This document shows positions 907-62,364 of a stretch of DNA of 64,000 nucleotides, piece after piece (position 1 is the stretch's first letter; each line of letters starts with the position of its first letter). This DNA comes from an uncultured Clostridia bacterium (GTDB lineage: Bacteria; Bacillota; Clostridia; TANB77; CAG-508), in NCBI GenBank assembly GCA_934130935.1, contig CAKOYQ010000004.1, forward strand, positions 27,060 through 91,059, given 5' to 3'. Under the pieces are notes generated by a model, which did no database searches, had not been told where the DNA came from, and saw only the letters and a program-made list of their open reading frames with translations. Made by a program: the position numbers and the translations under genes.

Positions 907-925
907 CAATATTATACCTCCATTC

Positions 926-9786: not shown

Positions 9787-11135
9787 TTTTCTAGTTCTCC
9801 TTTCATTTTATTTTTTTCTTGACTTTGTTGCTGTTCCATTTCTTGCATTTCTTGTTTTATTTTTTGTGTTTGATTTTCAATTCTTTCAATACACACCACC
9901 TCCTGTTTTAAACATTTTATCTTGTTTGATATTTCTAAAATTTCATCACATAATGCTTGTCTAATTTCTGGAATATTTTCTTTTTGCCTTTTTCTACGAA
10001 GTTTATTTCTTTGTGCTATTTGATTTTTTAGTTCATCATTTACAAGATTTTTATATGAAAAAAGTTCCTTTGTAGTTTTTATCTTATTTCTACAAAGAAA
10101 CCTCATATCATCTGAAAATTCATCTAATTTTTTACTTTCTGCTCGTTGTTCTGGTGTTAGTCTATATCTTGTTTTTGTACTTTTGGGAAATACTTTTAAC
10201 ATATAGCAATAATAAAGATATAATTTATAAAGACTGCCTCTATCTATACTGAAAACTTTTGGTTTTGATTTTGAAGTATAGATTTTTGTCTCTCTATATT
10301 TCTCTGGAAATGGTATTCTAGTTGTTTCTGTATTCATAATTCTTTCAGTAATATTATTAATTGAATATTCTTCTCCAAAACTTCTTTCTATTCTGATATT
10401 TCTTTTATAAGGTGGTCTTACTAAACTTATTTTATTTGCACGAATTGTAATTGTATATCCCATTTTTTTCAAAATACTTTCAAAATTTTTATATGAATAT
10501 GCTTGTGCTATTGCAAAATCAACATCATCTTTTGTTGTAGTATAATAATCTGATTTTTGAATATAAGAATTATAATATTTTGTATAATCTATATTGTGTT
10601 TACCACATGGCTTTTCTTCTATGACGCTTAATCCATATTCTTTGCATAATTCATCTGAGATTTTTCTCATCATTGCATAATTTTCTCTATTGTTTATATA
10701 TTTTTTTCCGTCTACAAATGAAACAGAATTTACTACAAAATGATTATGAAAATGATTCGTATTAAGATGAGTTGATACTAATACCTCATATTTATCTCCC
10801 CATAATTCTTCAGCAAGTCTAACACCAATTTCGTGTGCTTGTTTAGCAGTTACCTCGCCTTCGACAAAAGATTGAAACCCATGATATGCAACAATGCCTT
10901 TCTCTTTTCCATAATATTTTTTTGTTTGTAACATATCTTGAACACTATCTGTTGTAGAACAATTAATTCCTGTAACATAGTATTGTTTTTCAGTTTTATA
11001 ATCTGCTGTTGCATATTCTATTGTATTATGGAGTGCTTTATACATTTCTTTATTTTCAGTTTTTTCTGAATTAGTTGTATAATTTATAACTTTGTCTATT
11101 CTATTTTGAATTTTCCATAAGCTCGTAGTTGCCAT
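9783..11135 (-). CDS. Relaxase / mobilization nuclease (MOBP-type, MobA/VirD2 superfamily)
   Basis: Histidine-triad motif HLNTNHFHNHFVVNSVS near the N-terminus, upstream Tyr-containing motifs, C-terminal coiled-coil. Directly follows the mobC-like gene and the oriT hairpins. Confidence 0.8.
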   Translation of the reverse strand: MATTSLWKIQNRIDKVINYTTNSEKTENKEMYKALHNTIEYATADYKTEKQYYVTGINCSTTDSVQDMLQTKKYYGKEKGIVAYHGFQSFVEGEVTAKQAHEIGVRLAEELWGDKYEVLVSTHLNTNHFHNHFVVNSVSFVDGKKYINNRENYAMMRKISDELCKEYGLSVIEEKPCGKHNIDYTKYYNSYIQKSDYYTTTKDDVDFAIAQAYSYKNFESILKKMGYTITIRANKISLVRPPYKRNIRIERSFGEEYSINNITERIMNTETTRIPFPEKYRETKIYTSKSKPKVFSIDRGSLYKLYLYYCYMLKVFPKSTKTRYRLTPEQRAESKKLDEFSDDMRFLCRNKIKTTKELFSYKNLVNDELKNQIAQRNKLRRKRQKENIPEIRQALCDEILEISNKIKCLKQEVVCIERIENQTQKIKQEMQEMEQQQSQEKNKMKGELEK

Positions 11136-26400: not shown

Positions 26401-27771
26401 TTTTCCAATAGGCAAATCACTTATCGTTGCTATTCCATTACTATTAGATGTAATTTTTGCAACAGAATCTCCTTTTGAATAATATTTTTTAGTTTTAGCA
26501 ACATTATAAATATCTTCATCTGCTTTGACTTCAAATTCAGCTCCTGCAATTTTATCATTATTTGTACTCAATTTATATATTTTAATTTGACCTGTTGGCT
26601 CATTGTTTCTAAATGTAACATTTGCAGTTTGACCTGCAACAACATCTACTTTCTGTATGGATGTATCTAATAAATAACCTGTTGCTACTGATTTCTCTTT
26701 AATGTAGTATGTCATTGGTTTTAATTTATCATATAGTATTCTTCCATCAGTTCCTGTTGTTGCTGTTTTTATCAAATCTGTGCATTCTGCATTTCTGTAT
26801 AATTCAAAAACACAATCAGAAACCGCATTGCCCATATTATTTGTTTTTAATAATGCTATTTTTCCACTTTGTACTTCTACTGAAATGTTAAAATTTGATG
26901 GATCTACATAGTTTGAGAACATTAAGTTTTGTACCGCACCATTATTAAATTGAAAATATACATAGTTTCCCATTGTAGAACTATCATACTTTCTTCCATT
27001 AGGCATTAATTCATAAATTCCATAATTTTTTGAAACAAAATTAGCATTTGTTTCATTTGTATCTGCTGATACACTTATATTCAAATCATTACTTCCCTGT
27101 GTGTGTGAAAAAGTAATACCATTTATATTATGACTAAAACTTTCATAATGAGCTAAAACACCATTTGAGTCATTTAATGTTGTACTTTCTCCAATGTTTA
27201 CTTTAACATTCATTCCATTTATTGATGTATTTCTATGATATTGATTATAAGCTGACTCTGTTTCATTTAGCCAATTTGCATAAAGTCCACTTGACATATA
27301 ATTTGACTTCCACGAATCTCTTGAAGGACATTTCATATTTCCGTCGATATTGTTTTTAATATATTCCCATACAAATTGTTGAGTGCAACAAGCATCTTTT
27401 TTTGCACTAGCATTAGTTGGAAGTCCCATTCCATGTTTTGATGTATAACCAAAATAAATATATTCTGCTATTTTTTCGTATTCACTTCTTTGTGCTTTAT
27501 ATTGTGTTACAAAATCTCCATTAAATGAATAAGAGCTACCATTAGGAGATTTCATTCCGTATTGGGTACAAAACAACAAATATGTTGTGCCATCATAATT
27601 TGAATAATGTAATTCATGACCATATTCTGTTAAACTTCCAGATATAACTCCAAATTGAGCGTTACTATTCATATCAGTAATAAATGCAGCAAATGCATTT
27701 ATTGGAATTGATGAAAGTAAAATTAATACCAACATCAATATTGAAACTAACTTTTTTGTTTTATCTTTCAT
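23476..27771 (-). CDS. Sortase-anchored surface adhesin with tandem Cna-B/SpaA-type isopeptide domains; possible N-terminal thioester-like domain
   Basis: N-terminal signal peptide MKDKTKKLVSILMLVLILLSSIPINAFA. There are at least ten Ig-like repeats with the Cna-B signature (..GxY.L.E..AP.GY.., e.g. GKYIVYETKAPKGYLL), including four near-identical ~90-aa repeats (ENGKIIDTWTSSKDNHKIEGL..). The C-terminus carries the sorting signal VPNTG, a hydrophobic helix and a KKKSRKKKNK tail. The N-terminal region contains FCTQ and CCTQQFVW motifs. Confidence 0.8.
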   Translation of the reverse strand: MKDKTKKLVSILMLVLILLSSIPINAFAAFITDMNSNAQFGVISGSLTEYGHELHYSNYDGTTYLLFCTQYGMKSPNGSSYSFNGDFVTQYKAQRSEYEKIAEYIYFGYTSKHGMGLPTNASAKKDACCTQQFVWEYIKNNIDGNMKCPSRDSWKSNYMSSGLYANWLNETESAYNQYHRNTSINGMNVKVNIGESTTLNDSNGVLAHYESFSHNINGITFSHTQGSNDLNISVSADTNETNANFVSKNYGIYELMPNGRKYDSSTMGNYVYFQFNNGAVQNLMFSNYVDPSNFNISVEVQSGKIALLKTNNMGNAVSDCVFELYRNAECTDLIKTATTGTDGRILYDKLKPMTYYIKEKSVATGYLLDTSIQKVDVVAGQTANVTFRNNEPTGQIKIYKLSTNNDKIAGAEFEVKADEDIYNVAKTKKYYSKGDSVAKITSNSNGIATISDLPIGKYIVYETKAPKGYLLNETIFNADIKYVNSTTPVVELKIEGVINTEPTGTIEIVKKDSETGSMAQGDATLENAVYKVYADEDIYNVAKTKKYYSKGDLVATRTMDKNGKTTPIEELPLGKYLVKEDVAPKGYLLDKTEYSINLEYKDQYTKVITNTTTSNELVKKMGVHIFKSGIKENSGETPGLAGAEFTIKLNSAVEKALDAGYSYEEIWNGIDENGNKVKVDAKRVAQAQKIAPTYDVLITDKDGNAYTQKNLPYGKYIVKESNTPKDYESASDFYFSITDDETEIQDVAKKTKHIVVNNEQLEAYIKLIKKDLKTDKIVTLSSTTFEIKATKDIYDRATGKIIWKKGESVSQKIGSTTYNSFTTNADNMIIPEKSYTTNNDDKGTVITPLQLPVGSYAIYEINTPKGFLQLETPVTFDIKGIRDYDKDQDEDFIKEVTIKNEQPTGTLMIDKTIALRENIDTSIIDTSDLSGIEFKLIAKENIIDNADGSKIYSKGQEIGTYNLNKNGNLKVENLPMGTYELEETKTLDGLVLNDTKYEIKFEQEDLIRKVYEDKENISNDTTIFEFSKKSITGDDELEGAKLSVTDENGKIIDTWTSSKDNHKIEGLIVGKTYKLNEEIAPDGYTKATSVEFKVENTKEIQKVEMIDKIVTMSKKDIGGNEVDGAKIKVFDKDGSVIDEWVSGKENHNIKGLTEGEKYILHEEYAPDEFVIATDVEFEVTYGKETQEIVLIDKSVEITKTDLVTGDEIEGAELQVVDENGNIIDEWVSEKEPHKVTGLEENKKYELIEKTAPYGYETTEKIEFVVTTDKETQKIEMKDMPILKNIKLNKIDSKTKELIKEKFVFGIYEDEECNNLIKEVKSNKNDGYVVFDQLRYGKYYIKEIKAPVGYELSNKIVNIEINDNGVFADGNLIEENDSIYSIDFENDIIEVPNTGDNRHTEIFALIGGLSAISLAGAFIYDYKKKSRKKKNK

Positions 27772-28704: not shown

Positions 28705-29658
28705 TTATCTATCATACTTTTTTAATTCTTTTTCTTTTTGCCATTTTAATTGATAATTTTCTAAAAGTTTTACAATTATCTTTTGCATTTCGGTTGGTGT
28801 ATATTCTTTTGGAAAATACCCTTTTACTTTATCTACACTAAATTTGATGTTTTCTTTTTGATTTGGCTTTTCTTCTGATAGTATTCTATCTATATCGTCA
28901 TCTGTTAAATTTCCATCTGCACTTAATTTTTTTAATTCTCTTGCTTGTGGATGTGATGGAAATACCTCATTATATTCCATTACTTCAAAGACATATTCCT
29001 GCTCTGATTTTGTTAAATATGATATTTCAACTGCTGGTCTCAATTTCATTTTTTCATCATCAACTAATTGCAATAGTTCTGGTATCAGTTCGGTTAGTCT
29101 AATGTATCTTCTGATTTGGTCTTGGCTTTCTCCCATTTCTTCTCCTAAAATTTCTCTTGAAGTTTTTCCTTCTAACTTCTGTGCCGTTGGCACAGAAGTT
29201 GACAAGTCATTTCTTCTTCCTTGTCTTTTCATTGCCTCTAACTTCATTTTATAGGCAAAAGCTTTTTCACTTGGCAATATTCTTTCCCTCTGTTTATTAC
29301 TATCTACCATATAAATAATAGCATCTTCATCTGACATATCTCTAACTATTGCAGGTATTTCTTTTATTCCTGCAAGTTCACAAGCCCTTTTTCTTCTGTG
29401 ACCTGAAATCATTTCATAAGTTCCATCTTCTTTAGGTCTTACTATAACTGGGTGTATTACACCATTTTCTTTAATGTTTTCGACAAAATCTTCCATTTCT
29501 TCATTTTCTTTTACTTGATAAGGATGATTTGGAAAATTAGAAATAGAAGAAACTGCTATTTTTTCTACTTTTTCTAACTTCTCGGCATCTCTTTCTTCTT
29601 GTGTTGTAAAGAAATCATCTATCTTGGGAAAGTGCATTTTTTCTTCTTTCTCTTTCAT
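28705..29658 (-). CDS. parB: ParB/Spo0J-family partition protein
   Basis: ParB N-terminal box MISGHRRKRACELAGIKEIPAIV with an HTH; overlaps parA as in par operons. Confidence 0.8.
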   Translation of the reverse strand: MKEKEEKMHFPKIDDFFTTQEERDAEKLEKVEKIAVSSISNFPNHPYQVKENEEMEDFVENIKENGVIHPVIVRPKEDGTYEMISGHRRKRACELAGIKEIPAIVRDMSDEDAIIYMVDSNKQRERILPSEKAFAYKMKLEAMKRQGRRNDLSTSVPTAQKLEGKTSREILGEEMGESQDQIRRYIRLTELIPELLQLVDDEKMKLRPAVEISYLTKSEQEYVFEVMEYNEVFPSHPQARELKKLSADGNLTDDDIDRILSEEKPNQKENIKFSVDKVKGYFPKEYTPTEMQKIIVKLLENYQLKWQKEKELKKYDR

Positions 29659-30442
29659 TATCTTTCAAAACCTCCTTCGCAAATAATGAATAAGCCTCTG
29701 TGACCTTACTATTTTTGTCATAGGCTATTATACTTTTTCCTTTTGATGTAGTTTCTGCTGCTTTAATAGCAAATGGAATATTAGTATCATAGATTTTCAC
29801 AACATTACCAAAATTATTTATGAGTTCTTCCTTTATAGCACTCGGCAATTTTGTTCTACTATCAACCATAGTCATTAGAATACCACCAACTTTTAACTCT
29901 TTATTTAGCTGTCTTTTTACTTTTGCAACAATATTTAATAAATTTCCCATTCCTCTTGCTGATAAATACTGACTTTGTACTGGTATAATTACTTCATTGC
30001 TACAAGCTAAAGCATTTGTAGTTATCATATTTAATGACGGCATACAATCAATAATTATAAAGTCATATTTATCTTTCAAGTCCTTTAAGCAACCATCTAG
30101 TGCATATTCCCTTTTCATTGCATTCATAAGTTCAGACTCAACCATTGCTAATCCTAAATTTGACGGTATTAAATCGATATTTTCTTTATGATGTAATATT
30201 GATTCTTCTGCATTTATATTTTCATCTTTAATATATCGGTCTATTAGTGTTCCTAATGTTACTGGTATATTGTCTTCATCATAAAATCCCATACAAGTTG
30301 TAAGATTTGCTTGTGGATCTGCGTCTACTACTAAAACTTTTTTGCCATTATTAGCTAGAGATACTCCTAGACTAAAAGTTGTTGTTGTTTTTCCTACTCC
30401 ACCTTTTTGATTTGCTATGCTAATTACTTTGCATTTTGACAT
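29615..30442 (-). CDS. parA: ParA/Soj-family partition ATPase
   Basis: Deviant Walker A KVISIANQKGGVGKTTT. Confidence 0.85.
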   Translation of the reverse strand: MSKCKVISIANQKGGVGKTTTTFSLGVSLANNGKKVLVVDADPQANLTTCMGFYDEDNIPVTLGTLIDRYIKDENINAEESILHHKENIDLIPSNLGLAMVESELMNAMKREYALDGCLKDLKDKYDFIIIDCMPSLNMITTNALACSNEVIIPVQSQYLSARGMGNLLNIVAKVKRQLNKELKVGGILMTMVDSRTKLPSAIKEELINNFGNVVKIYDTNIPFAIKAAETTSKGKSIIAYDKNSKVTEAYSLFAKEVLKDNERERRKNALSQDR

Positions 30443-43763: not shown

Positions 43764-43806
43764 TATCAAAGTTTTGCGCAAAAAGAGATAGGAGTAAAAT
43801 AGTAGA
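43764..43806. repeat. Intergenic repeat A, copy 2 (partial; contains the TTTTGCGCAAAA palindrome)
   Basis: TATCAAAGTTTTGCGCAAAAAGAGATAGGAGTAAAATAGTAG. Confidence 0.7.
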
Positions 43807-43906
43807 CCCCCCTTCCAGAGTCCTACTCACAAGCTCTTGTAACTACTTTTAAATAATTTTTCTATTTAAAATTTAATTTCATTACTTAATAATTTTTATT
43901 TCACAA

Positions 43907-43954: not shown

Positions 43955-44909
43955 TTATTCATTATTTAAAAAATTCATCACTAAATCTATAATTACATCC
44001 TTTTCTTTTGGATTTGATTCTGCAATTAATAAAGTAAGAGCTGTTAATGTATTGTTGTCAATTACTTGATTTCCATTTTTATATAATATTCCATAAAAAT
44101 TTAGAAAATATATAAATAAAGTTGCTGCAATTCTTTTGTTTCCATCGGCAAATACATGATTTTTTACTATTAAATATAAGAAATTTGCTCCTTTTTCTTC
44201 TATACTCTTGTAAATATCTTGTCCGTGCAAAGCTTTGATAAATGTTACCAATAATCGATTCTAATCCTTTATCTCTTTCAACTGCAAAAAGCGAACTTTC
44301 TTCATTAAATCTTAATTTATTAATTATATCTATACATTCTTGGTATCCAATTTTTCTATCATCTGTATTTCCTTCAATTTTCTTTAAAGTTCTATGATCA
44401 TAATCATCTAATAAGTCTAATGCTTTTGAATATCCTCCAATTACCTTCAATATTTCTTTTGCATCATTTCCTTCTAGTCTTTCATCAATGCGGTTTGCAA
44501 TATCTATAAGTTTTATAGTTTTTTCTAAGTACTCTAGTCTTTTTTGATTTACAGCATAACCTTTTAACATGTAGTCTTTTAGTATGTTTGTTGCCCATTT
44601 TCTGAACAAAATACCTTGTTTGCTATTTACTCTATATCCAATAGAAATAATCATATCTAAATTGTAATATTGTACATTATATCTTTTGCCATCTTCAGCA
44701 GTATGCTCAAAAAATGAGCATACTGAGCTTTCTACTAATTCTTCATCTTTATAAATATTTTGAATATGACGAGTGATTGTTCTTCTATCTTTCCCAAATA
44801 ATTCTGCCATTTGTTTTTGTGTAAGCCACACAGTTTCATCTTTTAAGTTTACTTCTAATTTTACTCCTTGGTTTTCAAATAAAATAATTTCATTCTTTTT
44901 TTCGTCCAT
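43955..44909 (-). pseudogene. RhuM-family virulence protein fused to a Fic/Doc domain, frameshifted (ORFs 44079..44909 and 43955..44251 overlap in different frames)
   Basis: RhuM N-terminal domain LKDETVWLTQKQMAELFGKDRRTITRHI...YNLDMIISIGYRVNSKQGILFRKWAT. Fic motif HVFADGNKRIAA in the second ORF. Confidence 0.7.
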
Positions 44910-45005
44910 AAGAACACATCCTTTATTATATAAAATTTAATTCTTATTTTATAATAAGAACAAACATTTGTCTATAGTTTTAAACAAAATTATTAGCTAT
45001 TTTAG

Positions 45006-45062
45006 AAAAAAGTTCCGGGTATCAAAGTTTTGCGCAAAAAGAGATAGGAGTAAAATAATAGA
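45006..45062. repeat. Intergenic repeat A, copy 3
   Basis: AAAAAGTTCCGGGTATCAAAGTTTTGCGCAAAAAGAGATAGGAGTAAAATAATAG, about 100 nt upstream of the RhuM/Fic start on the minus strand. Confidence 0.7.
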
Positions 45063-45166
45063 ACACCTTTTTATATATTTTTAACATCATCTAAAGACAT
45101 TTTTCCTATCTTTAATGGTGTCCAAATTTCATGTGATACTGCTATTTCATTTTTGATTATCTTTTA

Positions 45167-46495
45167 TCATAAATTCTCTAATGCTTTTTTTATTGCATAT
45201 ATAAATTTTCTTTCCATTTCAGTCTTATTTTTTTCGCTAATATTGCTAAATGTATGGTTTTTAATACATCTTAAAAAATCATCATAATATCCATTAAAGT
45301 ATAAATCTTTCTTTAATATTTGAATAATTTCTTTTTTATTAAAAAATTCGAATAATTCACTATATTTAACAATATTATAGCGCTTTTTATATATTTCTTT
45401 TTCAAATTTTTCTATTTCTTTTTTTAAGAAATTAAAATTGTAATCTGGTACAAATATTAGTCCATATATTTCGTTTTCGTCAATATTATTATCAGTCTTA
45501 ATATCTTTAATATATTTTCCAAGTTGTGTAGTTTCTTCATTTTTATCAATTCCATTTAGACCAGATTGTATTTTATTTTCAATAATAATTGCTTTATCCT
45601 TACTTATAGCAAAGAGATCCATTCTTCCATGTTTTAATTTCTTTTCTTTTTTTAATTCGAATTTATCTTCTATGTTCAGTTTTTCTTTTATAAATTCATC
45701 GATTAAATTATTACTATTAAGCCAATAATAAAATAAATTTGTATAAATTTGTTCTTCATCTTCTTTTTCTATTAATTGCAAATAATTCATATTTATATTT
45801 TCAACTTTAAAATTATTTATTTTTTCTTTATCTATTCTTGGAGTTTCCATCATTTCAAATAATTTTCCCCTATTATTATTTATAAATTCTTTTATCTTAT
45901 CATAATCATGAAATATCTCGTATTCTGAACCTTTTTTTCTTTTTTCATCTTTAATAAAATATCCTTTTAAACTTGAACTTGGAAGACTTTTTTCTACTTT
46001 TATTATATATTTATCTTCATTATTGTCTTTTTCATTATTTGATATATAAATTTTTACATTATCTTTTGGTTTTAAAACTTTTTTGGCTTTAAATGTTACG
46101 TATATTGCCTCGTCATTTTGTGCATTATATTTGAATATTTGTTCAAGTGTTGCACCTCCATATGTCACATTCTTAAGCTTTTTTAATTGTTCTTTATGTA
46201 TTTCTTCTGTTCCTCGATTTCCTCCTTTATGAATTTGACCATTTTCATCAATTTCAATTACAGCCAAAATTTCTACTCTGTTATTTGACAAAGAACTAGT
46301 TAAAATGATTGTATCAATCCTATCATCTTTTTCTTTTGCCATCCCTCCATATGGCAAAATATAAATATAATTATCACCATTATCATCTTTAAAATAATTT
46401 ATTATTTCATGTCCAATATTGCTAACAGTATAACTTCCTGTACACATTTTATTAATTAAAATTATATCCCTTTTTATTTTTTTATTATCTTCCAT
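45167..46495 (-). CDS. Two-domain protein: unknown N-terminal domain plus C-terminal PD-(D/E)XK nuclease-like domain
   Basis: HGRMDLFAISKDKAIIIENKIQSG...TTQLGKYIKD fits the D..(E/D)xK core seen in PDDEXK-type nucleases. Its start is separated by only 2 nt from the stop of the DUF2779 gene, so they probably form an operon. Confidence 0.5.
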   Translation of the reverse strand: MEDNKKIKRDIILINKMCTGSYTVSNIGHEIINYFKDDNGDNYIYILPYGGMAKEKDDRIDTIILTSSLSNNRVEILAVIEIDENGQIHKGGNRGTEEIHKEQLKKLKNVTYGGATLEQIFKYNAQNDEAIYVTFKAKKVLKPKDNVKIYISNNEKDNNEDKYIIKVEKSLPSSSLKGYFIKDEKRKKGSEYEIFHDYDKIKEFINNNRGKLFEMMETPRIDKEKINNFKVENINMNYLQLIEKEDEEQIYTNLFYYWLNSNNLIDEFIKEKLNIEDKFELKKEKKLKHGRMDLFAISKDKAIIIENKIQSGLNGIDKNEETTQLGKYIKDIKTDNNIDENEIYGLIFVPDYNFNFLKKEIEKFEKEIYKKRYNIVKYSELFEFFNKKEIIQILKKDLYFNGYYDDFLRCIKNHTFSNISEKNKTEMERKFIYAIKKALENL

Positions 46496-46497
46496 TT

Positions 46498-48012
46498 TTA
46501 TTTTTCTCCTATTATTTCTTTAAACCTCTCCCATAACTTTACCATTGCCAATGTATCAAGTTCACAATAAACCAGTAATCCATGTCTTATTTCTTTTTGT
46601 TCTTTTTTAGACTTATTTTTCAAATTCAAGAAAGCCTCTGATGCCTCTTCACCATTATGTACAACTGGCAAATTATGATAATCTAATTCAGGATCATCTG
46701 GATAAAGTGCTGGTAAAACAGCTTTAATCGATGCTGAACCATGCATTTCTTTTGTATAATATTTTCTTTGTTTAAATGGTTCAAGAAAATCTACAATATT
46801 ACTATTTATTCTATCCATTTCATCTTTTAAATCTGGATACATCCTTGCTATTTCATTATTTCGAGCAGGTTCAAAAGATTTATTATAAATAATTACGCTT
46901 CCATTTTCAGGCATATCTTTTATCATACTTTCTGCAAAATGCCTGATATAATCTGGGTCATCAATTTCGGCTAAAAACTCTTTATGTTCTATTGGTGCTC
47001 CTTTTTCTTTTATAATATGTAATGAGTATTGAAAAGGTAGTTGTTGATATGGCCTTGTTCCTTCAATTTCTGGTATTGCTAATTGATATGTCTCATAATC
47101 TATAAAATATAATGGATATTTAAGAGAATCCATTAATTCTTTTATTGCTTCTTTTTCTATTTTGGGTTTTAAATTATTTAATTCAAAATCAATTTGTTCT
47201 AAAAATTTAGGATTTAAATCTTCATTTTGTAGGTCTTTAAAAGATATTTTTCCTTCATAATATTTTTCGAATTTTTTCGAATTATGCATTCCTCCACCAA
47301 TATCAAAAACATTTGGTCTTGGTAAATTTCTTGTACAATATTCCCAAAATTCGCATTTATAAGGCTTAAGACATTTCATTCCTATGTCTTCTTTAGGTTC
47401 ATTATTCTTGTCATGTTCATTCATATATTTATTTGTTATTTCAATATTTTTTCTTATCTCATCTTGTTTTGATTTTGCTATATCTGTTATATCTTCTATG
47501 TTAAATAATTTTTCTATTTCTAATTTTTTTCCTCTTATATATTGATTATTTATATATACAATACAAACTTTTTTAACATTTAGTCCAAGATTAGATAAAA
47601 CAAAATATTGATATGAAGCATCATCTAAATAGATATCCTGTACTTCTGTTGAACTTTTTACTTCATATATTTCCATACCGTCTAAATTGTTTTTTAATAT
47701 GTCTACACTACAAAAATTATTGTCATAGTTAAATGATGCTTCTGTTATTATATTAGGCTTATTTTTCAATAATTTTCTTGTTTCTGCAACCATAATATTT
47801 AAATCTTTGTTGAATTCAATGTTTGTATAGTCTCCGAATAGATTTCTTGCAAGTTCTCCTACTTCTGTTCCATTTTTCAAAACTGAATCTCTTGAAGTTG
47901 GAATTGCAACTTCTGATTTATACTTGTCCATCCATAATATTTTGTTACATTGAATAGATTTACAATATTTTGATTTTGATAAATGAATTTTATTCATAAC
48001 ATTTCCTTTCAC
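46498..48012 (-). CDS. DUF2779-family protein (Cas4/RecB-like PD-(D/E)XK nuclease N-domain with a Cys cluster, plus a C-terminal domain)
   Basis: N-terminus LSKSKYCKSIQCNKILWMD, a D/EVK core (GMEIYEVKSS), Cys cluster KCLKPYKCEFWEYC, and C-terminal FIDYETYQLAIPEIEGTRPYQQLPFQYSLHII, which is typical of DUF2779. Confidence 0.55.
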   Translation of the reverse strand: MKGNVMNKIHLSKSKYCKSIQCNKILWMDKYKSEVAIPTSRDSVLKNGTEVGELARNLFGDYTNIEFNKDLNIMVAETRKLLKNKPNIITEASFNYDNNFCSVDILKNNLDGMEIYEVKSSTEVQDIYLDDASYQYFVLSNLGLNVKKVCIVYINNQYIRGKKLEIEKLFNIEDITDIAKSKQDEIRKNIEITNKYMNEHDKNNEPKEDIGMKCLKPYKCEFWEYCTRNLPRPNVFDIGGGMHNSKKFEKYYEGKISFKDLQNEDLNPKFLEQIDFELNNLKPKIEKEAIKELMDSLKYPLYFIDYETYQLAIPEIEGTRPYQQLPFQYSLHIIKEKGAPIEHKEFLAEIDDPDYIRHFAESMIKDMPENGSVIIYNKSFEPARNNEIARMYPDLKDEMDRINSNIVDFLEPFKQRKYYTKEMHGSASIKAVLPALYPDDPELDYHNLPVVHNGEEASEAFLNLKNKSKKEQKEIRHGLLVYCELDTLAMVKLWERFKEIIGEK

Positions 48013-48108
48013 GTTTTTTATAAGTTAAAGAGTTTTAAGACTTTTAAATAAATAATACCATAATTAAAAAAAACTTACAATATTTTTTATAATCCATATA
48101 TTTAATTT

Positions 48109-49719
48109 CTAAAAACCTATTCTTGTTATAGACTTTTCTTTTTTTATTGGCATTGTGTTAATTGCTTTTTCTATGTCTCCCTTAAGTATTGAGTTTATAG
48201 CTTTACTCCTAGTTTGTACAATTCTATCAGCTTGTTCGAATTTTACTTTTTCAAATAGGTTTCTAACATATCTTCCATTTCCAAAATTCTCCTCGTTTTT
48301 TGCTTTTTTAAAATTATCACTTAAAATTTCTTTACAGTTGTTTGTTAGTCGGTATTTTTCCTTTTTGCATAATCCATTGAATATTTCTAACAATTCTACC
48401 TCATTATAATCTGGAAAGTTAATTGTAAATTGTATCCTACTTTCAAAACCAGGATTGAGTTTTAGAAGATTTTTCATTTCTTCAGTATAACCTGCAAGTA
48501 TAATACATATTTCGTTTCTGTGGTCTTCCATTTCCTTTATTAATGTTGCAATTGCCTCATCTTCAAAACTTCCCCTTCTATCTGCAACTAAGCTATAAGC
48601 TTCATCAATAAATAAAACACCACCAATAGCTTTTTCCACAGTTTTATGTACTTTTTGAGCAGTCCACCCAACATATTTATCAACTAAATCTCTACCATGT
48701 ATTTCTACAAAGTCTCCACTACCACTTAGTATGTTTTCTTCTTCAAATATCTTTCCTATAGCCCTCGCAATACTTGTCTTTCCAGTTCCTGGATTTCCTG
48801 TAAAGCACATATGTAATGATGGCATTTGTCCTCTCTTTTTGTTTATTTTCACATAATTCAAAATTTTATTGATTTGTTTTTTTACTTCATCAAGTCCGAT
48901 TAAATTATTTAATTCCTCTTTGGCATTTATTTTTTGCTTTTTAGTTTTTCTTATATTTGTATTATTATTATCTGAATAAAATGCTTTATTTTTGTTTAAC
49001 ATTTGTTTATCTATAAAATTAATATTTTTACTTTTACATTCTATTATTAATTTTGTAATCATATTTTTTAAAATCCAAAAAGGAACATCAGCATATGATC
49101 TTAAATCCTGCTTTTTATAAGTTAGTTTTTGCTCATCAAATTTTTTTTTGCAATACATAATTTTGTCATCTAAAGAAATTTTATCTATTGTTATTCTAAA
49201 TGATGCTAATTCCCCAAGTTCGCCATCTGCCTCGCCTTCACAATAATTAGTATCTTCAAATATAAAAATTCTATTTTTATGCTGATTCATAATTCTTCTT
49301 AAATTATCAAATTCGTCATCATAATTAATTCTTAATTTTTTCTCATTAATAACAATTATAGAGTCTTCAATTCCAGAAATCCTGTCAAATAGGCAATCTC
49401 TTCTATTATTTATAATTTTATCAAGATAGCATATTTTATTATTTTCTATGATGTTGTATTTTATAAAAATTTTGGCACAAACTTTTAGTAAATCATTTAA
49501 TAGATTATAAGACGAGTTATTCCTTACAATTATATTATAATTTCCAAAATCTAATTCATTGTTTTGCTTTAGTTTTATGTAAAGTATAATATCTTTTAAA
49601 ATTTCTTTGTTTTGTAAAACTCCACATAAATTGTCTAATTCATTTAATATCTTTTCATCTTCTTCATCTAATAGATATTTTTTTATCATTATTACTCCCC
49701 CTATTTTTTTATTCATCAA
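48109..49719 (-). CDS. AAA+ ATPase of the SpoVK/CbbX subfamily with an unknown ~280-aa N-terminal domain
   Basis: Walker A FTGNPGTGKTSIARAIGKIF, Walker B VLFIDEAYSL and the arginine-finger region of CbbX-type ATPases. Confidence 0.8.
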   Translation of the reverse strand: MMNKKIGGVIMIKKYLLDEEDEKILNELDNLCGVLQNKEILKDIILYIKLKQNNELDFGNYNIIVRNNSSYNLLNDLLKVCAKIFIKYNIIENNKICYLDKIINNRRDCLFDRISGIEDSIIVINEKKLRINYDDEFDNLRRIMNQHKNRIFIFEDTNYCEGEADGELGELASFRITIDKISLDDKIMYCKKKFDEQKLTYKKQDLRSYADVPFWILKNMITKLIIECKSKNINFIDKQMLNKNKAFYSDNNNTNIRKTKKQKINAKEELNNLIGLDEVKKQINKILNYVKINKKRGQMPSLHMCFTGNPGTGKTSIARAIGKIFEEENILSGSGDFVEIHGRDLVDKYVGWTAQKVHKTVEKAIGGVLFIDEAYSLVADRRGSFEDEAIATLIKEMEDHRNEICIILAGYTEEMKNLLKLNPGFESRIQFTINFPDYNEVELLEIFNGLCKKEKYRLTNNCKEILSDNFKKAKNEENFGNGRYVRNLFEKVKFEQADRIVQTRSKAINSILKGDIEKAINTMPIKKEKSITRIGF

Positions 49720-49792
49720 AAAAACACTCTAAAGTTAATATATCAAACTTTAGGGTGTTTTCCAATATCGCTGGTCACGTATTGTAAATTAA

Positions 49793-50788
49793 TTATATTT
49801 TATATTTTTCTATTGCATTTTGAACAACTTCTCTCATTTCATTTCTTAGAGTTTCTGGCCTAACAACTTCGACCATGTCAATATTTCTCATAGCCCACAT
49901 TTTAAATCCCATTGGATTCGAATCTACTATTAATTTAAAATCCTTATCATTCCCTAGTATTCTCTCAATAGTAACATTTTTTCCGAAAATATCAAATATT
50001 GCATTTAAAAGCATTTTATTACAAATTGCTTCAATTTCTTCTTTTTTACCACCAAACATTTCAACTGTAGACTCTGCAAAATCTTTAATCTGAGATTTTG
50101 TCTTTTTAATATTTATTTTTTCGTTTAGTTCTTTTACATTTTTCATTCTATCTAGTCTATAATGATAAAATTTATTTTGACCATCTTTTATTCCTATAAA
50201 ATAAAATTCTTGTTTATTGTATATTATTGCAAATGGTGAGACTGTTGGCGTGCTTACTATTTGTTTTTCTAATTTATTTGTTATTTCATATTTCCAGTAT
50301 TCAAATTTAAGTTTATGGTTATTATAAATACTATTAGAAATATCTTCTATGTTTTTTATTACTTCCGAATTTTCTGTTTTGCTATTTACAGAATATATTT
50401 GATAATCTTTTAATTTTTCATTTTCATATACTGTTTGCAAGTTTTTACATTTTTTTATAATTTCTTTTGCAACATTAGGCACAATATAATTTGCATAACT
50501 AAAATTATCAATTATAGCTCTAACTTCTCCAGGTTCAAAGTCTGTTTCAGGGTCTCTGTTAATGTAATACCCTTTTCCATTGTCTTCTCTAGTACTTATA
50601 TCATAATTTAATTTATATTTTAATAAATTAATATTTCTTCTTATTGTTCTTGTATCTATTTTAACATCATATATTTCTTTAATCTTCCTTTGTATTTCTG
50701 CGGCAGAAAGCATGTGGTCTTCGTCACTATATTTTTTTAATACATTTAATATGTATAATATGTTTCCGTTTTTTTCGTATAAATCCAT
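49793..50788 (-). CDS. WYL-domain transcriptional regulator (wHTH, WYL and C-terminal WCX-like region)
   Basis: N-terminal HTH NILYILNVLKKYSDEDHMLSAAEIQRKI..TRTIRRNINLL. WYL core FAIIYNKQEFYFIGIKDGQNKFYHYRLDRMKNVKEL. Confidence 0.7.
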   Translation of the reverse strand: MDLYEKNGNILYILNVLKKYSDEDHMLSAAEIQRKIKEIYDVKIDTRTIRRNINLLKYKLNYDISTREDNGKGYYINRDPETDFEPGEVRAIIDNFSYANYIVPNVAKEIIKKCKNLQTVYENEKLKDYQIYSVNSKTENSEVIKNIEDISNSIYNNHKLKFEYWKYEITNKLEKQIVSTPTVSPFAIIYNKQEFYFIGIKDGQNKFYHYRLDRMKNVKELNEKINIKKTKSQIKDFAESTVEMFGGKKEEIEAICNKMLLNAIFDIFGKNVTIERILGNDKDFKLIVDSNPMGFKMWAMRNIDMVEVVRPETLRNEMREVVQNAIEKYKI

Positions 50789-50852
50789 AACACTATCCCT
50801 CTTTTTATATATACAACATTCAACTTACTTTTTCTTGATAAATAACTAATTT

Positions 50853-51926
50853 TTAAAATTTCAAAATTCTTTCTATATTATTAATTAATTTTTTTAATTC
50901 TCCAAATGTCAAATCATCGATGTTGTAATTTAATAATGTATATTCATTATTTGCATCACTACCTCTAGCTAATTTTTTTAAATGTAAATCTTCTAATTTT
51001 TTTTCTATATTATTTATTAAAGCATTTCTTTCTTTTACATCATATAATGTATTAACTCTCAATTTTAATGTATTTGCTCTATTGTCATCATCATAATATA
51101 AATTTATTTTTAGGAAAAAATTATTTCCTAATGATGATTTTAATTCTAATGGAATATTTCTCCAAACTGTTGTATTGTAGCCTGTTGAACTTATGCCATA
51201 ACTATCACTATTTTCAAAATTATTAACAAATTTTATATAACGAATTTGTTTAATTTCTTTTCTTGTTAATAAATTACCATCTTTTGTTAATTTTATTTTT
51301 TGTTCTTCTATGTTTTTTAAACATAGTTCCATTTCATTTAAATATTTATAATAATCATATAAGTATTGGTATTTTTCTAAGTTTGCAAATGTATTTAATA
51401 AACCCAACATATCACAACGTTTGAAAACTTTATTTACCATTTTTGTTATTTCATATGTATCTTTCTTTAATTCCTCAAACATTTTATAATAACAAGTTAT
51501 TATATTTTTTTCCTTTAAATCTGAAATATTAATATCTGATAACATTCCATTTTCAGATAATTCCATTAATCCATTTTTATATCTAATAATTTGGTTATCA
51601 TGTATACCAGTATTTATTTTATCTTCAATAATTATTACATATTTATTTTCAATTACAACAAGTATATCAATAGCAACATAATCCTCTTTGTTAAATTTTC
51701 TTTTGAATTGTTTATAAATATTTACTTTTAAAGTGTCTTTTTTTAATACTGCTTTCAGGTCTTCGTTTTCAGATGGTTCTACTATTTGTCCGATAAATTT
51801 TTTTGCAAAATTAATTATTTCTTTATTTTCAGAATTCTCTGGAATATTAATCCAATTTATTAGCCAACATATAAAAGCATCATGTGATATTTCTTTTGTA
51901 ATAAACTTAAAAATATTATTTTCCAT
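50853..51926 (-). CDS. PD-(D/E)XK nuclease-family protein (N-terminal nuclease-like domain plus C-terminal unknown domain)
   Basis: EISHDAFICWLINW and AIDILVVIENKYVIIIEDKINTGIHDNQIIRY match the PDDEXK pattern. The arrangement is similar to the 45167..46495 protein. Confidence 0.5.
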   Translation of the reverse strand: MENNIFKFITKEISHDAFICWLINWINIPENSENKEIINFAKKFIGQIVEPSENEDLKAVLKKDTLKVNIYKQFKRKFNKEDYVAIDILVVIENKYVIIIEDKINTGIHDNQIIRYKNGLMELSENGMLSDINISDLKEKNIITCYYKMFEELKKDTYEITKMVNKVFKRCDMLGLLNTFANLEKYQYLYDYYKYLNEMELCLKNIEEQKIKLTKDGNLLTRKEIKQIRYIKFVNNFENSDSYGISSTGYNTTVWRNIPLELKSSLGNNFFLKINLYYDDDNRANTLKLRVNTLYDVKERNALINNIEKKLEDLHLKKLARGSDANNEYTLLNYNIDDLTFGELKKLINNIERILKF

Positions 51927-51984: not shown

Positions 51985-52401
51985 TTAAACAATTTTTATC
52001 CAATATCTTAAATAATTATATCCATCATCATTATTTATATAAACACTTTCAAAAATTCCACCATTTTTTTCTATTACTTTTTTTGATGCAAAATTAAAGT
52101 CTTTGCAAGTAATTAAAATATTATTAATATCTGTATTTCTAAATTTTTCTAATGCTAATCCTAGCATTTTACTTGCATGTCCTTTTCCCCTTTGACTTGG
52201 TCTAATACCATAACCTATTAAACCTCCAAAACTCATTAAGATTGGTACTTTTTTCCACCTTATTCCTATTGCACCTACTATTTCATCTTTATTATCCACA
52301 GCTAAATATAATGTATGTGGTGAATAACTTTTAGGCAGATTTTCTTCATACATTTCAATAATTTTTTTCTCATCAGTTACTTCTATTTCTCTTAATTTCA
52401 T
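51985..52401 (-). CDS. GNAT-family N-acetyltransferase
   Basis: Acetyl-CoA binding motif RGKGHASKMLGLALE. Confidence 0.7.
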   Translation of the reverse strand: MKLREIEVTDEKKIIEMYEENLPKSYSPHTLYLAVDNKDEIVGAIGIRWKKVPILMSFGGLIGYGIRPSQRGKGHASKMLGLALEKFRNTDINNILITCKDFNFASKKVIEKNGGIFESVYINNDDGYNYLRYWIKIV

Positions 52402-58992: not shown

Positions 58993-59841
58993 TTAAACTT
59001 CTCTATCATCATCATCGTCATCTAAAGAATTTCCAGATAATTGTCTAATAGTTAAATCATATTCTTTTGAAACCTCTTCTCTCGTTCCATGTCGTAAGTC
59101 ATTAATATCATAACTAGTATTATCTAAATTTTCTTCTACATTTTTTGTTTTATTATATATCTGTAAAGAAATTGGATGTCCATATGTTCCTAATTCAGGA
59201 AAACTAAGTCTTAAATGTTCAAATAGTTTTTCTACATTAGGATACAAATCTGCATATTTTTCAACCACTTCTGATTTTATTACACCTCGGCCAGTTTCTA
59301 TTTCTCTTTGCTTAATATTTCTTAAAGAAAGCTCTAAAGTTGGATTTAATATTACAAGCTCTGGCTTAATGTTATTTCTTATAGCTTGTTCTACTTTTTT
59401 TCCAAATGCTGGTGCAGTAATAGATCCTTCATATACTATAGTATCTTTTGGAATCGCATGTGCTTCATATAGTGATTGAATAAAAAATGATTTTCCAGCT
59501 CCATATGGTCCAGCGACATATATGCACCTATTAATATTTTTATTTTTTATTGCTCTCATATAAAATTCATTTGTCAAACAGGCTGCACTATTAGTTATAG
59601 CTAAATTATATTTCCCCCTGTTTTCCTGACTTCTAGCATAAATATCAAAAATCATTTTCATCAAATCCGAATTTATATAACTACCATCACGTGATGAAAC
59701 AAGTTCTTTGTATTTCTCCAACAATTCATCTGTCCTAGTTGTAGTTATTTTAATAATTTCATCTTGTACCTTTTGCAATTCGGGACTATCAAATTTCTTT
59801 CTCAATATTGTTTTTTCATCTATATTTCCCATATCTCTCAT
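58993..59841 (-). CDS. Zeta-toxin-like P-loop kinase family protein with a poly-Asp C-terminal tail
   Basis: Walker A YVAGPYGAGKSF with zeta-toxin/AAA_33-like spacing; 282 aa; ends ...SLDDDDDDREV. Confidence 0.45.
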   Translation of the reverse strand: MRDMGNIDEKTILRKKFDSPELQKVQDEIIKITTTRTDELLEKYKELVSSRDGSYINSDLMKMIFDIYARSQENRGKYNLAITNSAACLTNEFYMRAIKNKNINRCIYVAGPYGAGKSFFIQSLYEAHAIPKDTIVYEGSITAPAFGKKVEQAIRNNIKPELVILNPTLELSLRNIKQREIETGRGVIKSEVVEKYADLYPNVEKLFEHLRLSFPELGTYGHPISLQIYNKTKNVEENLDNTSYDINDLRHGTREEVSKEYDLTIRQLSGNSLDDDDDDREV

Positions 59842-60185: not shown

Positions 60186-61181
60186 ATGATATCAAGAGAA
60201 AAAAATCCAGAATATCTAAACTCATTTTTAGATTATTCAATAACTATCTTAAATAAATCACCAAATTCAGTAAAAGAATATAATTATGATTTAACTAATT
60301 TTTTAAAATTCATGGTAGTACGCTTTAAATTAACAAATGAAACTGATTTGTCTAAAGTAGATATCTTATCATTTAAAGAAAATGATTTAAAAAAAGTAAC
60401 ACTTGATGACATTCATGCTTATATATCGCATTTAGCAATAGATAACAGAAGTAAAGCGACAACAAGAGCCAGAAAAGTTTCAACAATAAGAATATTTTTT
60501 AAATACCTATCACAAAAAGCTAATATTTTAAATATAAATCCTGCTCAAAACTTGGAAACACCAAAACTTGAAAAAAGAATGCCAAAGTATTTATCTTTAG
60601 AAGATAGTAAAAAATTATTAAGTGTAGCAGAAAATGAAGATAATAGAAATTATAAAAGAGATTATGCTATTACAACATTATTTTTAAATTGTGGTATGAG
60701 ATTATCTGAATTAGTTGGAATTAATATAAATGATATAGATTTTAGTGAATGTAAAATGACTGTAATTGGAAAAGGAAATAAAGAACGTACAGTTTATCTG
60801 AATAAATCTTGTATGATTGCATTAAATGATTATTTATCTTCTCGCCCACCATCAAACATGATTAAGCATGATAGTAAAAATTCAGAAAAAGCCCTTTTTC
60901 TTAGTGAGCAAAAACAACGTATTAGTAATAGAACTGTCCAAAATATAATAAGTAAAGAATTAAAACAAGCCGGTCTGGATACAAAAAATCTGTCTGTTCA
61001 TAAATTAAGACATACTGCTGCTACATTAATGTACCAATATGGAAATGTTGATATAAGAGCTTTACAGGAACTTTTAGGTCATCAAAGTATTTCTACAACT
61101 GAAATCTATACACATGTCAATAATGAACAAGTGCGTAATGCTGTAGAATCAAATCCTTTAGCAGACCCTAAAGATTTGTAA
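60186..61181 (+). CDS. xerC: Tyrosine site-specific recombinase, XerC/XerD family
   Basis: Catalytic R..H..R..Y residues: LHKLRHTAATLM and LLGHQSISTTEIYTHV. Confidence 0.75.
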   Translation: MISREKNPEYLNSFLDYSITILNKSPNSVKEYNYDLTNFLKFMVVRFKLTNETDLSKVDILSFKENDLKKVTLDDIHAYISHLAIDNRSKATTRARKVSTIRIFFKYLSQKANILNINPAQNLETPKLEKRMPKYLSLEDSKKLLSVAENEDNRNYKRDYAITTLFLNCGMRLSELVGININDIDFSECKMTVIGKGNKERTVYLNKSCMIALNDYLSSRPPSNMIKHDSKNSEKALFLSEQKQRISNRTVQNIISKELKQAGLDTKNLSVHKLRHTAATLMYQYGNVDIRALQELLGHQSISTTEIYTHVNNEQVRNAVESNPLADPKDL

Positions 61182-61785: not shown

Positions 61786-62364
61786 TCATAACAATATAGG
61801 TTGAATTTGTTCACCATCTAAAGCATATTCTATTGTTTTTATCAAATATGATGGATCAAAGACTACAGAACGTGGTTTAGTAATCGGATTATCTTGTCTA
61901 AACGGAACAAAATAATAATGTTTTCTATTAAGTAATTTTCCTATGTTTTCTCCTGCACCTGAAAGTCCATTATTGGTTGATATAGCTATAACTACAGGTT
62001 TTTCTTTTCTTAAATGTGATTTTACTGCCATAGTTGCAGAATTATCTATGATATCATTTGCAAGTTTTGCCATGGTATTACCTGTTGCAGGCGCTACCAC
62101 TAATATATCTAACATATCTTTTGGACCAAGTGGTTCTACTTCTTGAATGGTGTGTAAAATTTTGGTCCCAGTAATATCTTCAATTTCATTTATAAAATCT
62201 CTAGCTTTTCCAAATTTAGTATCCATGGTATAACTGTTTTCTGACATTATAGGAACTACTTTAGCTCCTAATTTCACAATCTTCTTAAGCTCATCTATGG
62301 TTTTTCTAAATGTACAAAATGAGCCTGTCATTACAAATCCTATTCTTTTCTCTTCTAAATTCAC
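61786..62364 (-). CDS. dpaB: Dipicolinate synthase subunit B (SpoVFB; flavoprotein family)
   Basis: Full-length similarity in pattern to SpoVFB: RIGFVMTGSFCTF, EPLGPKDMLDILVVAPATGNTMAKLAN, PVVIAISTNNGLSGAGENIGKLLNRKHYYFVPFRQDNP. Confidence 0.75.
   Translation of the reverse strand: MNLEEKRIGFVMTGSFCTFRKTIDELKKIVKLGAKVVPIMSENSYTMDTKFGKARDFINEIEDITGTKILHTIQEVEPLGPKDMLDILVVAPATGNTMAKLANDIIDNSATMAVKSHLRKEKPVVIAISTNNGLSGAGENIGKLLNRKHYYFVPFRQDNPITKPRSVVFDPSYLIKTIEYALDGEQIQPILL

Follow-up and report, generated by a model that had tools for sequence, protein, structure and literature searches.

We analyzed a stretch of 64,000 nucleotides (nt), hereafter the window, from contig CAKOYQ010000004.1 of an uncultured Clostridia bacterium (positions 27,060 to 91,059 of the forward strand, guanine-cytosine (GC) content about 25%). 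Its positions 45167-51926 are filled by five co-directional open reading frames (ORFs) on the minus strand, here called genes A to E, which encode a PDDEXK_4 protein, a WYL-domain protein, an AAA+ ATPase, a DUF2779 protein and a second predicted nuclease, respectively (Table 1). The cassette has a RhuM/Fic gene on one side and a GNAT gene as its other neighbor, and the position, orientation and neighbors of the five genes given in a preliminary description of the locus were confirmed. The gaps are 64 nt between A and B, 73 (or 103) nt between B and C, 96 (or 111) nt between C and D and 2 nt between D and E; the alternative values depend on whether C starts at TTG or at the ATG at 49689 chosen by gene callers, and whether D is 504 or, as called elsewhere, 499 amino acids (aa) long. 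The five-gene block is present at more than 99% identity on at least 23 human-gut metagenome contigs, and the arrangement is identical in all contigs of the source species that were read. We read the cassette as the nuclease-rich part of an integrase-associated island of low-GC gut Clostridia, built on a WYL-AAA+-DUF2779 trio with cargo slots, and the trio as a defense system, a reading that we hold tentatively and place slightly short of evenly balanced. We searched for the combination of DUF2779, WYL and AAA+ in PADLOC v2 and, on the literature side, in open-access text. No catalogued system was matched by the five proteins in PADLOC-DB v2.0.0, which holds no model for D or E, and the seven open-access papers that name DUF2779 (PF11074) describe no defense system built on it. 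The proposal of an undescribed defense cassette stands for the core of regulator, ATPase and nuclease, which is not in the catalogues searched and gains strength from its recurrence across phyla, and falls for the five-gene unit, because A and E are interchangeable.

Table 1. Coordinates of the cassette genes and of other features in the window.
Feature	Position	Strand	Description
Gene A	50853..51926	-	357 aa; Pfam PDDEXK_4
Gene B	49793..50788	-	331 aa; Pfam WYL
Gene C	48109..49689	-	526 aa from ATG (48109-49719, 536 aa from TTG); AAA + AAA_lid_6
Gene D	46498..48012	-	504 aa (499 aa as called elsewhere); DUF2779
Gene E	45167..46495	-	442 aa; without Pfam match
RhuM/Fic gene	43955..44909	-	frameshifted near 44236; separate module
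51-nt direct repeat, copy 1	43764..43814		downstream of RhuM/Fic
51-nt direct repeat, copy 2	45020..45070		between E and RhuM
21-nt repeat TTTGTCTATACTTTTAAACAA	51972..51992		about 46 nt upstream of gene A
21-nt repeat, other copy	44967..44987		about 58 nt upstream of RhuM
Weak zeta-toxin-like gene	58993-59841		next to flavoprotein and integrase genes
Tyrosine integrase	60186..61181	+	Pfam Phage_integrase, 2e-42; adjoins flavoprotein gene
Flavoprotein gene	61786-62364		beside integrase; YcxB-like gene near

Protein D is matched by Pfam DUF2779 (PF11074) with 149.4 bits against a cutoff of 23.3 (8e-44), and nothing in PADLOC v2 matched it. Published accounts see in the family a fusion of a Cas4-like nuclease with a DEDDh-type exonuclease (PMC13621843, PMC3985635), with a C-terminal domain reported to be similar to the mitomycin-repair exonuclease MrfB (PMC13621843). 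In 11 orthologues of D the cysteines C17/C22, C214, C220 and C226 are invariant together with D104, E117 and K119, and likewise the DEDD residues D305, E307, Y482 and D486. Since these residues match the family description (PMC13621843, PMC3985635), D is assigned as a putative double nuclease: its N-terminal domain is Cas4-like, of PD-(D/E)XK type and with a four-cysteine cluster, and its C-terminal domain is a DEDD-type 3'-5' exonuclease. It keeps the D...ExK triad and four cysteines of the Cas4/AddB-type iron-sulfur nucleases and the DEDD(y) acidic residues of MrfB-like DEDDh exonucleases, but it has neither a CRISPR-Cas link nor an MrfA-type helicase, its partners being WYL and AAA+ proteins. 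D is one of the anchor genes of the island.

Protein C contains AAA and AAA_lid_6 domains (Pfam) with intact Walker A (GNPGTGKT) and Walker B (LFIDEA) motifs. Among PDB sequences it resembles CbbX (2e-59) and EccA1 (5e-49) over residues 254-514 only, and its NCBIfam matches likewise lie within residues ~260-516: 254.3 bits for SpoVK (TIGR02881, cutoff 422.95, residues 267-507 only), 205.9 bits for CbbX (TIGR02880, cutoff 459.25) and 183 bits for EccA, where the equivalog cutoffs are 423-467. With scores so far under the cutoffs and an unrelated gene context, C was rejected as an orthologue of SpoVK, CbbX or EccA; the possibility that it is a genuine SpoVK, raised in the preliminary description as one that would undo the defense reading, is thereby answered in the negative (254 bits against 423). 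The neighbors of C across loci are WYL and nuclease genes, and no Rubisco genes were found near it in the window neighborhood or in the related contigs read, so that C differs from the CbbX/SpoVK/EccA proteins in having no Rubisco, sporulation or ESX context, and from SpoVK also in its N-terminal extension of ~250 aa in place of a single AAA+ module. PADLOC gave weak IetA (35.6 and 26 bits) and TRIP13 matches to the generic AAA core, and NCBIfam IteA reached 17.9 bits against a cutoff of 510. The cassette has no protease gene, and C differs from IetA and TRIP13 in lacking an IetS protease partner and a HORMA partner.

The structure model of C (mean predicted local distance difference test score, pLDDT, 82) was compared with known folds by Foldseek. 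The C-terminal half resembles CbbX (template modelling score, TM, 0.73-0.76; 35% identical), and the whole chain aligns to the double-ring ATPases Cdc48, p97, Rix7 and Drg1, giving a tandem AAA+-like fold. The C-terminal half is thus predicted from its motifs to be an active module of the CbbX/SpoVK/EccA class. In the model the N-terminal ~250 aa show the AAA+ order of secondary-structure elements and no Walker A motif; by hhalign this half matches neither the C-terminal half of C nor other tandem ATPases. What had been listed as an unknown 280-aa N-terminal domain is therefore, by structure only, probably a degenerate second AAA+ module, and the label 'degenerate D1' is tentative because sequence support from hhalign is absent. 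Unlike known AAA+ modules it has no Walker A and no sequence relatives detected outside a narrow clade, and it forms 55 representative clusters among 1.84 billion proteins. C is an anchor gene and usually the last one in the co-directional block. A phage origin of C and D was considered and rejected: a scan of IMG/VR viral contigs gave no close relatives of either protein, and the phage and plasmid collections contained no full-length match to C, only to its AAA core.

Protein B, another of the three conserved anchors, is matched by Pfam WYL (PF13280; 35.4 bits, cutoff 21.8, 1.1e-8) and by PADLOC WYL models (4.6e-20 and 5.4e-16), with model PDLC01457 spanning residues 25-254; the WCX domain stays below threshold (17.3 bits, cutoff 23.9, 0.006). 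Only distant similarity to solved WYL proteins was found (expectation value about 0.4). B is presumed to be a ligand-responsive transcription regulator. Protein A carries Pfam PDDEXK_4 (PF14281; 33.2 bits, cutoff 22.3, 6.4e-8) at residues 4-205, so that its nuclease domain is N-terminal and its C-terminal half uncharacterised, and it has a weak PADLOC match to PDC-S26. The family of A is rare (28 clusters). Its homologues lie directly upstream of WYL, with AAA+ downstream, in three other independent contexts besides the window, and A occupies a variable slot in this position.

Protein E has no match in Pfam, NCBIfam, PHROGs or PADLOC, and the PDDEXK_4 profile (PF14281) did not reach its threshold. 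A confident structure model suggests that it consists of an N-terminal PUA-like reader of the YTH/ASCH/McrB-N type and a C-terminal PD-(D/E)XK nuclease. Foldseek recovers the nuclease half only, and no sequence profile supports the reader domain. In the family alignment the nuclease residues D293, E306, N307 and K308 are invariant, as is the NIGHE motif of the N-terminal domain, in which the aromatic residues Y43, Y45, Y112 and F135 are near-invariant. The domain calls made earlier are thus borne out by Pfam for A to D (PDDEXK_4, WYL, AAA+/AAA_lid_6 and DUF2779), and the call for E was right in substance, with a C-terminal PD-(D/E)XK core in the model and no Pfam match. A and E had also been described as proteins of related architecture, which does not hold: their domain orders are opposite, BLASTP finds no similarity between them, and we rejected them as paralogues.

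An N-terminal reader followed by a C-terminal PD-(D/E)XK nuclease is the layout of modification-dependent restriction enzymes (PMC6765204), and with the domain order taken from the model E is a candidate modification-dependent (Type IV) restriction endonuclease. The closest known enzymes of this reader-plus-nuclease type are MspJI, AspBHI, YenY4I, VcaM4I and the McrB of T. gammatolerans with its YTH-like N-terminal domain. No methyltransferase gene was found in a scan of the cassette, RhuM/Fic, GNAT and the genes at 57.2-63.9 kilobases (kb), nor among the neighbors named from precomputed Pfam hits. In the proteins searched, the family of E comprises 70 or more clusters (90% identity). The plasmid collection gave no match to E. 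In 80 metagenome loci with E relatives (25-35% identity) these stand alone in unrelated contexts (76 of the 79 other loci; related loci are numbered here with the prefix L), DUF2779 being adjacent to the E relative in L112 only and near it in L137, and closer relatives are also solo in L012-L015. Stand-alone restriction enzymes behave in this way, and the most fitting reading of E is as an independent enzyme of Type IV-like character. Its gene starts 2 nt past the end of D. The preliminary description had the ATPase translationally coupled to two nucleases; with 96-111 nt between C and D this does not hold, and coupling is possible for D and E only.

The genome scan with C recovered full-length orthologues (61-86% identity) in 28 species-level metagenome-assembled genomes (MAGs), which are labelled uncultured Clostridia or Clostridium sp., with single ones labelled Bacillota, Anaeroplasmataceae and Oscillospiraceae. 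In 21 of the loci the AAA+ gene is preceded by 6 kb or more of sequence, and the flanks of these were compared by ORF clustering. Of the 21, 16 have a WYL orthologue (420-677 bits) and nine a DUF2779 orthologue upstream in the same orientation; further examples of the trio are L062, L166 and L170. A conserved neighborhood therefore exists, as had been asked of the cassette at the outset, and it extends to a cross-phylum trio on plasmids, described below. The usual order is DUF2779-[slot 1]-WYL-[slot 2]-AAA+, followed by genome-specific flanks; the order A-WYL-AAA-DUF2779-E of the window is an atypical, rearranged version.

What the slots contain differs between genomes. Slot 1 is occupied by E in L011 and L037 and by GmrSD, PDDEXK_4 or unclassified proteins elsewhere, or is empty. 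The GmrSD Type IV enzymes are those of L031 (PADLOC HEC-05, 2e-183) and L044 (GmrSD_N + GmrSD_C, HEC-06), and A-type PDDEXK_4 proteins were found in L020, L166 and L169-171. In L166 three genes fill the slot, for a small protein with D..ExK residues, an HD phosphohydrolase (HD/HD_assoc) and a homologue of A; downstream of AAA+ come an EcoRI-type methylase and a GmrSD_N/HNH gene. The c36 slot protein and a 364-aa protein of L062 matched nothing in Pfam or PADLOC. Slot 2 is empty in the window and otherwise carries macro-domain or ADP-ribosylglycohydrolase genes or a replication set (L027, L034, L038, L046, L062 and others) of DUF3846, a 270-aa DnaB_C-only helicase, an uncharacterised protein of 291 aa and a PHP/DNA polymerase III alpha-like protein of 1113-1339 aa with a novel C-terminal domain of ~350 aa. 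This last domain also occurs in separate ORFs or fragments of 130-648 aa, which may be decayed copies or parts of a modular replication cassette. TubZ-like, ImpB, ThiF, Mob_Pre relaxase and serine recombinase genes lie nearby in related loci, and a Y-family polymerase (IMS/ImpB) is upstream of WYL in L022 and L024. These surroundings are mobile-element territory. A and E are exchangeable cargo beside the conserved trio and do not form one obligate machine with it.

Outside this clade, DUF2779 matches 33 PLSDB plasmids, of which 17 loci were inspected. On Rhodoferax and Diaphorobacter plasmids an AAA+ ATPase with two Walker A motifs (698-726 aa) is followed by DUF2779 and WYL, the last two separated by 1-5 nt; in Sphingobium the ATPase and a PD-(D/E)XK gene are divergent from WYL-DUF2779, and in Azospirillum DUF2779, a tandem ATPase and WYL lie within 6 kb. 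Selenomonas pSRC1 carries, within 10 kb, NERD/UvrD helicase-AAA/AAA_lid_6 ATPase-metallophosphoesterase-hypothetical-DUF2779-...-WYL/WCX, and this ATPase is 38% identical to C over residues 186-502. Aliarcobacter butzleri p63 has the order DnaB_C-PDDEXK-DUF2779-WYL with a 1-nt gap before WYL, and Arcobacter p82 has PDDEXK_4 (6e-31)-DUF2779 beside type I restriction-modification (R-M) and Fic genes. WYL is present in all five plasmid loci with an AAA+ ATPase, and within the ~5-9 kb of flank fetched it accompanies DUF2779 in seven of the 17 plasmid loci against four of the 79 E-anchored loci (Fisher p = 3.5e-4). On other plasmids DUF2779 is found among SbcCD-like, NACHT, dGTPase, PLD, helicase and type I R-M genes. 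Arcobacter and Aliarcobacter plasmids (L155, L157, L159, L160) share an island with SbcD/SbcC-like, helicase-like and dGTPase genes and a large ATPase gene (NACHT + DUF4145 on pM830MA) that overlaps the start of DUF2779; it looks like a different DUF2779-containing candidate defense cluster. In the chromid of E. eligens ATCC 27750 (209-215 kb; L164/L165) we found a co-directional block of a helix-turn-helix (HTH) gene of XRE type, ImmA/IrrE, WYL, a hypothetical gene and a SpoVK-like AAA+ gene. Its WYL protein is 26% identical to B over the full length and homologous to the family of B (1e-31); in the core region, the ATPase shares 44-47% identity with C.

The extent of the island in the window was judged mainly from the tyrosine integrase. 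In L036 the AAA+ gene and the orthologue of this integrase are immediate neighbors and in L039 they are three genes apart, the orthologue lying next to the same flavoprotein gene, and the island of L166 has a 66%-identical integrase ~4.7 kb upstream of the DUF2779 gene. By this comparison the integrase at 60186-61181 is the probable island edge. The preliminary description had set the island between fab and envelope-stress genes; because the integrase adjoins the AAA+ gene in related species, the island is probably larger, from ~43.8 to 61.2 kb, and may include the LiaF, ATP-binding cassette (ABC) transporter, ZIP and GNAT genes, that is, the envelope-stress genes themselves. We infer these boundaries, since both att repeats and an empty site were absent from the searches: a comparison of the two ends, at the integrase and at RhuM, gave matches of no more than 18 nt, as expected by chance, and none of six flavoprotein contexts read in strains of the source species was an empty site, all of them carrying the island up to gene A. 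No tRNA or Rfam non-coding RNA was found in the window.

The RhuM/Fic gene shows Virulence_RhuM on a 276-aa ORF and Fic on an overlapping 98-aa ORF (Pfam), and tblastn with the L039 orthologue (312 aa, reaching the contig end) locates the change of frame. RhuM is the sole strong PADLOC match near the cassette (PDC-S23, 1e-82, also PDC-S05). The two 51-nt repeat copies are 92% identical, none being expected by chance, and RhuM/Fic looks as if it had been inserted or duplicated between them as a separate module. This repeat, repeat A of the preliminary description, had been taken to bracket the island, which we reject: both copies lie on one side of the cassette and flank RhuM/Fic only. The 21-nt repeat (pattern TTTGTCTATA[G/C]TTTTAAACAA) has two matches in the window against 0.01 expected. 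As a candidate WYL operator it was rejected, for 846 kb of related loci gave one match with three mismatches, the same as shuffled motifs. A promoter and terminator scan was uninformative in DNA of 25% GC (77 sites against 74.5 expected).

Some differences between strains were also seen in this region. The exact flavoprotein sequence occurs in 484 blocks of the collection and exact E in 36, a disparity that may reflect strains without the cassette or, alternatively, contig fragmentation and the fact that E is longer. Gene calls for GNAT give 138 or 179 aa depending on the strain (L002, L004 and L145 against L001 and the window, 51985-52401), with a strain indel of ~110 nt near 52336-52349, and in one strain (L150) an inserted FtsH-like gene separates ZIP from LiaF.

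Positions 1 to ~31000 of the window (minus strand) are occupied by a conjugative element. It comprises a CHAP-like gene (1-909, identified by its match to the CHAP gene of L017), a sortase (926-1663), a VirB4-like ATPase gene (2051-4015), TrbL_2, a T4 coupling protein in three ORFs (5672-7269) that is likely a pseudogene, DUF3801, a relaxase (9783-11135), a NikA-like gene, a Toprim/DUF3991 primase, DpnD-PcfM, a 1431-aa adhesin with SpaA repeats (23476-27771) and ParB/ParA (28705-30442). The fab operon separates it from the cassette. The conjugative element of L017-L019, whose VirB4, sortase and CHAP genes match positions 1-4015 of the window (L017), carries a D-E pair (E 72% identical) as cargo without B or C; this pair sits between type IV secretion system (T4SS) genes and an SNF2/methyltransferase block.

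How the trio might act as a defense system can be outlined from the biochemistry of its domains, and by analogy all four steps of such a mechanism would be as follows. The WYL protein would repress the block and release it upon binding a nucleic-acid-derived ligand, as BrxR, CapW, DriD and PafBC suggest. The N-terminal domain of E would read a modified base and the enzyme would cut modified invading DNA in the Type IV manner. D might then resect the ends in both directions, the Cas4-like domain 5'-3' and the DEDD domain 3'-5'. In the least certain step, an AAA+ hexamer would use ATP for remodelling, for example stripping end-bound or nuclease-inhibiting proteins. The catalytic residues of D and E and the Walker motifs of C are intact, which speaks for defense, as do the conservation of the trio in the clade, the defense-type genes in its slots, its recurrence in other phyla and the D-E pair as cargo of a conjugative element; this role is favored because the compact proteobacterial operons sit among PLD, helicase and macro-domain genes. 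A wider form of the idea is that WYL, a tandem-type AAA+ ATPase and DUF2779 constitute a self-contained and so far undescribed system against phages or plasmids, whose combination of domains is shared by gut Clostridia, Negativicutes, Alphaproteobacteria and Betaproteobacteria and in which a Cdc48-like remodeller and a two-directional exonuclease recruit interchangeable sensor nucleases, including a new PUA-like-reader/PD-(D/E)XK family represented by E; this we consider possible, although on the unlikely side.

Several observations weigh against a defense function of the trio. In Clostridia it is often split by genes for the DnaB_C helicase, the DNA polymerase III alpha-like protein, DUF3846 and TubZ-like proteins, and interruption by replication genes fits a backbone with hot-spots better than one operon. 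The order WYL-AAA-DUF2779 of the window departs from the usual DUF2779-slot-WYL-slot-AAA. Proteins are the usual targets of classic-clade ATPases, and neither a partner nor a substrate of C is evident. The proteobacterial ATPases match C by hhalign (98% over 136 columns, 27% identity) with the N-terminal half unmatched, and since this is a match at the generic AAA+ level, the cross-phylum trio is, as far as sequence comparison indicates, a domain-level association and not orthology. Finally, a DUF2779 protein is quasi-essential in JCVI-syn3.0, which suggests that, in one lineage at least, the family has a housekeeping function on DNA (PMC13621843).

The most serious competing explanation is that WYL, AAA+ and DUF2779 maintain an integrative element, by regulating its induction, processing DNA or supporting replication, and that the slot genes alone are defense cargo, as in the hot-spots of P4-like satellites and SXT elements. 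We regard it as unlikely, even if such a backbone role is favored by the replication genes (DnaB_C, DNA polymerase III alpha-like, c8 and DUF3846) which often interrupt the trio where it flanks variable cargo. The window, L036, L039 and L166 each have a related tyrosine integrase at the border of the island, the block of L062-64 adjoins a Mob_Pre relaxase, TnpV and a serine recombinase, and all genes are co-directional, the AAA+ gene typically being the last before unrelated, genome-specific flanks. The HTH-ImmA pair directly upstream of WYL in E. eligens is also a pairing known from induction switches of elements. On proteobacterial plasmids, however, the trio is tightly spaced with no integrase or replication genes adjacent and a PLD nuclease, helicase, macro-domain and metallophosphoesterase genes instead. 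C and D have no close relatives in IMG/VR and C has no full-length match in phages or plasmids, and in the window there are no replication genes, yet the trio is intact and its catalytic residues are conserved.

A role in DNA-damage repair, in which a WYL protein of DriD/PafBC type would sense single-stranded DNA and induce DUF2779 end-processing together with an ATP-driven remodeller, seems to us quite improbable. Regulation of DNA-damage responses by WYL proteins is established for PafBC and DriD, metallophosphoesterase and SbcCD-like genes recur near DUF2779, and the Y-family polymerase genes of L022 and L024 would fit as well. The reported resemblance of the C-terminal domain of DUF2779 to MrfB and its quasi-essentiality in JCVI-syn3.0 point in the same direction (PMC13621843). 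Against this, the genes occur patchily, in association with mobile elements and plasmids and not at a conserved chromosomal locus, their immediate neighbors code for Type IV restriction enzymes, dGTPase, NACHT proteins and type I R-M systems, and the N-terminal domain of C is confined to its 55 representative clusters, unlike what is expected of a general repair factor.

That all five genes form one obligate, co-evolved defense system, as the preliminary description proposed, was suggested by their common direction, short gaps, identical arrangement in the species contigs read and the plausible catalytic or regulatory residues of every protein. We consider it very unlikely, as the full set was found in the source species only. 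A itself is absent from the 28 C-anchored species loci (L020-L047), its homologues in L166 and L169-171 being 61% and 32% identical, E is solo in nearly all other loci including L012-L015, other genomes place unrelated nucleases in the slots, and D-E occurs without B and C on the integrative and conjugative element (ICE) of L017. Least probable of all is that these are anti-defense or establishment genes of a conjugative element in the style of leading regions: related loci do carry DUF3846, ADP-ribosylglycohydrolase, macro-domain, ThiF and ImpB genes typical of plasmid and ICE establishment regions, D-E lies downstream of T4SS genes in the L017 ICE and a related conjugative element occupies the first ~31 kb of the window, but genuine restriction-type enzymes (GmrSD/HEC-05/06), and not inhibitors, occupy the slots, the fab operon lies between cassette and conjugation genes, and no known anti-defense family was matched.

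With the trio read as a defense system, its nearest parallels among known systems are the BrxR and CapW loci of BREX/BrxU and CBASS, where, as with B, a WYL protein is encoded next to nucleases; the WYL damage regulators DriD and PafBC are close parallels of B as well. The GmrSD-type enzyme directly upstream of a B-type WYL gene in related loci resembles the pairing of BrxU with BrxR. The BREX and CBASS genes are nevertheless absent here, B is distant from the solved WYL proteins, and regulation by B is a prediction, its candidate operator repeat not being conserved. At the level of the whole island the likeness is to P2/P4 and to hot-spot 5 of the SXT ICE, in that DUF2779, WYL and AAA+ anchors and an integrase frame changing, restriction-rich slots. 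The present elements belong to another family, and their anchors are a nuclease, an ATPase and a regulator that co-occur also outside it.

Taken together, the cassette is part of a presumably regulator-controlled nuclease/ATPase island that includes a probable new restriction enzyme, E, with a PUA-like reader and a PD-(D/E)XK nuclease. If E is a modification-dependent enzyme, its family would be a new restriction family and a potential source of epigenetic reagents. DUF2779 is widespread and uncharacterised, and its partnership with WYL and AAA+ proteins on mobile elements is a first testable handle on its role. If the trio does serve defense, it would combine a protein remodeller of the classic clade with a Cas4/DEDD exonuclease, a combination absent from the catalogues queried. 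E. eligens, a gut species that is tractable and in culture, couples an anti-repressor-type switch to the WYL-AAA pair, and the island family as a whole is a hot-spot to mine for defense genes in poorly studied gut Clostridia.

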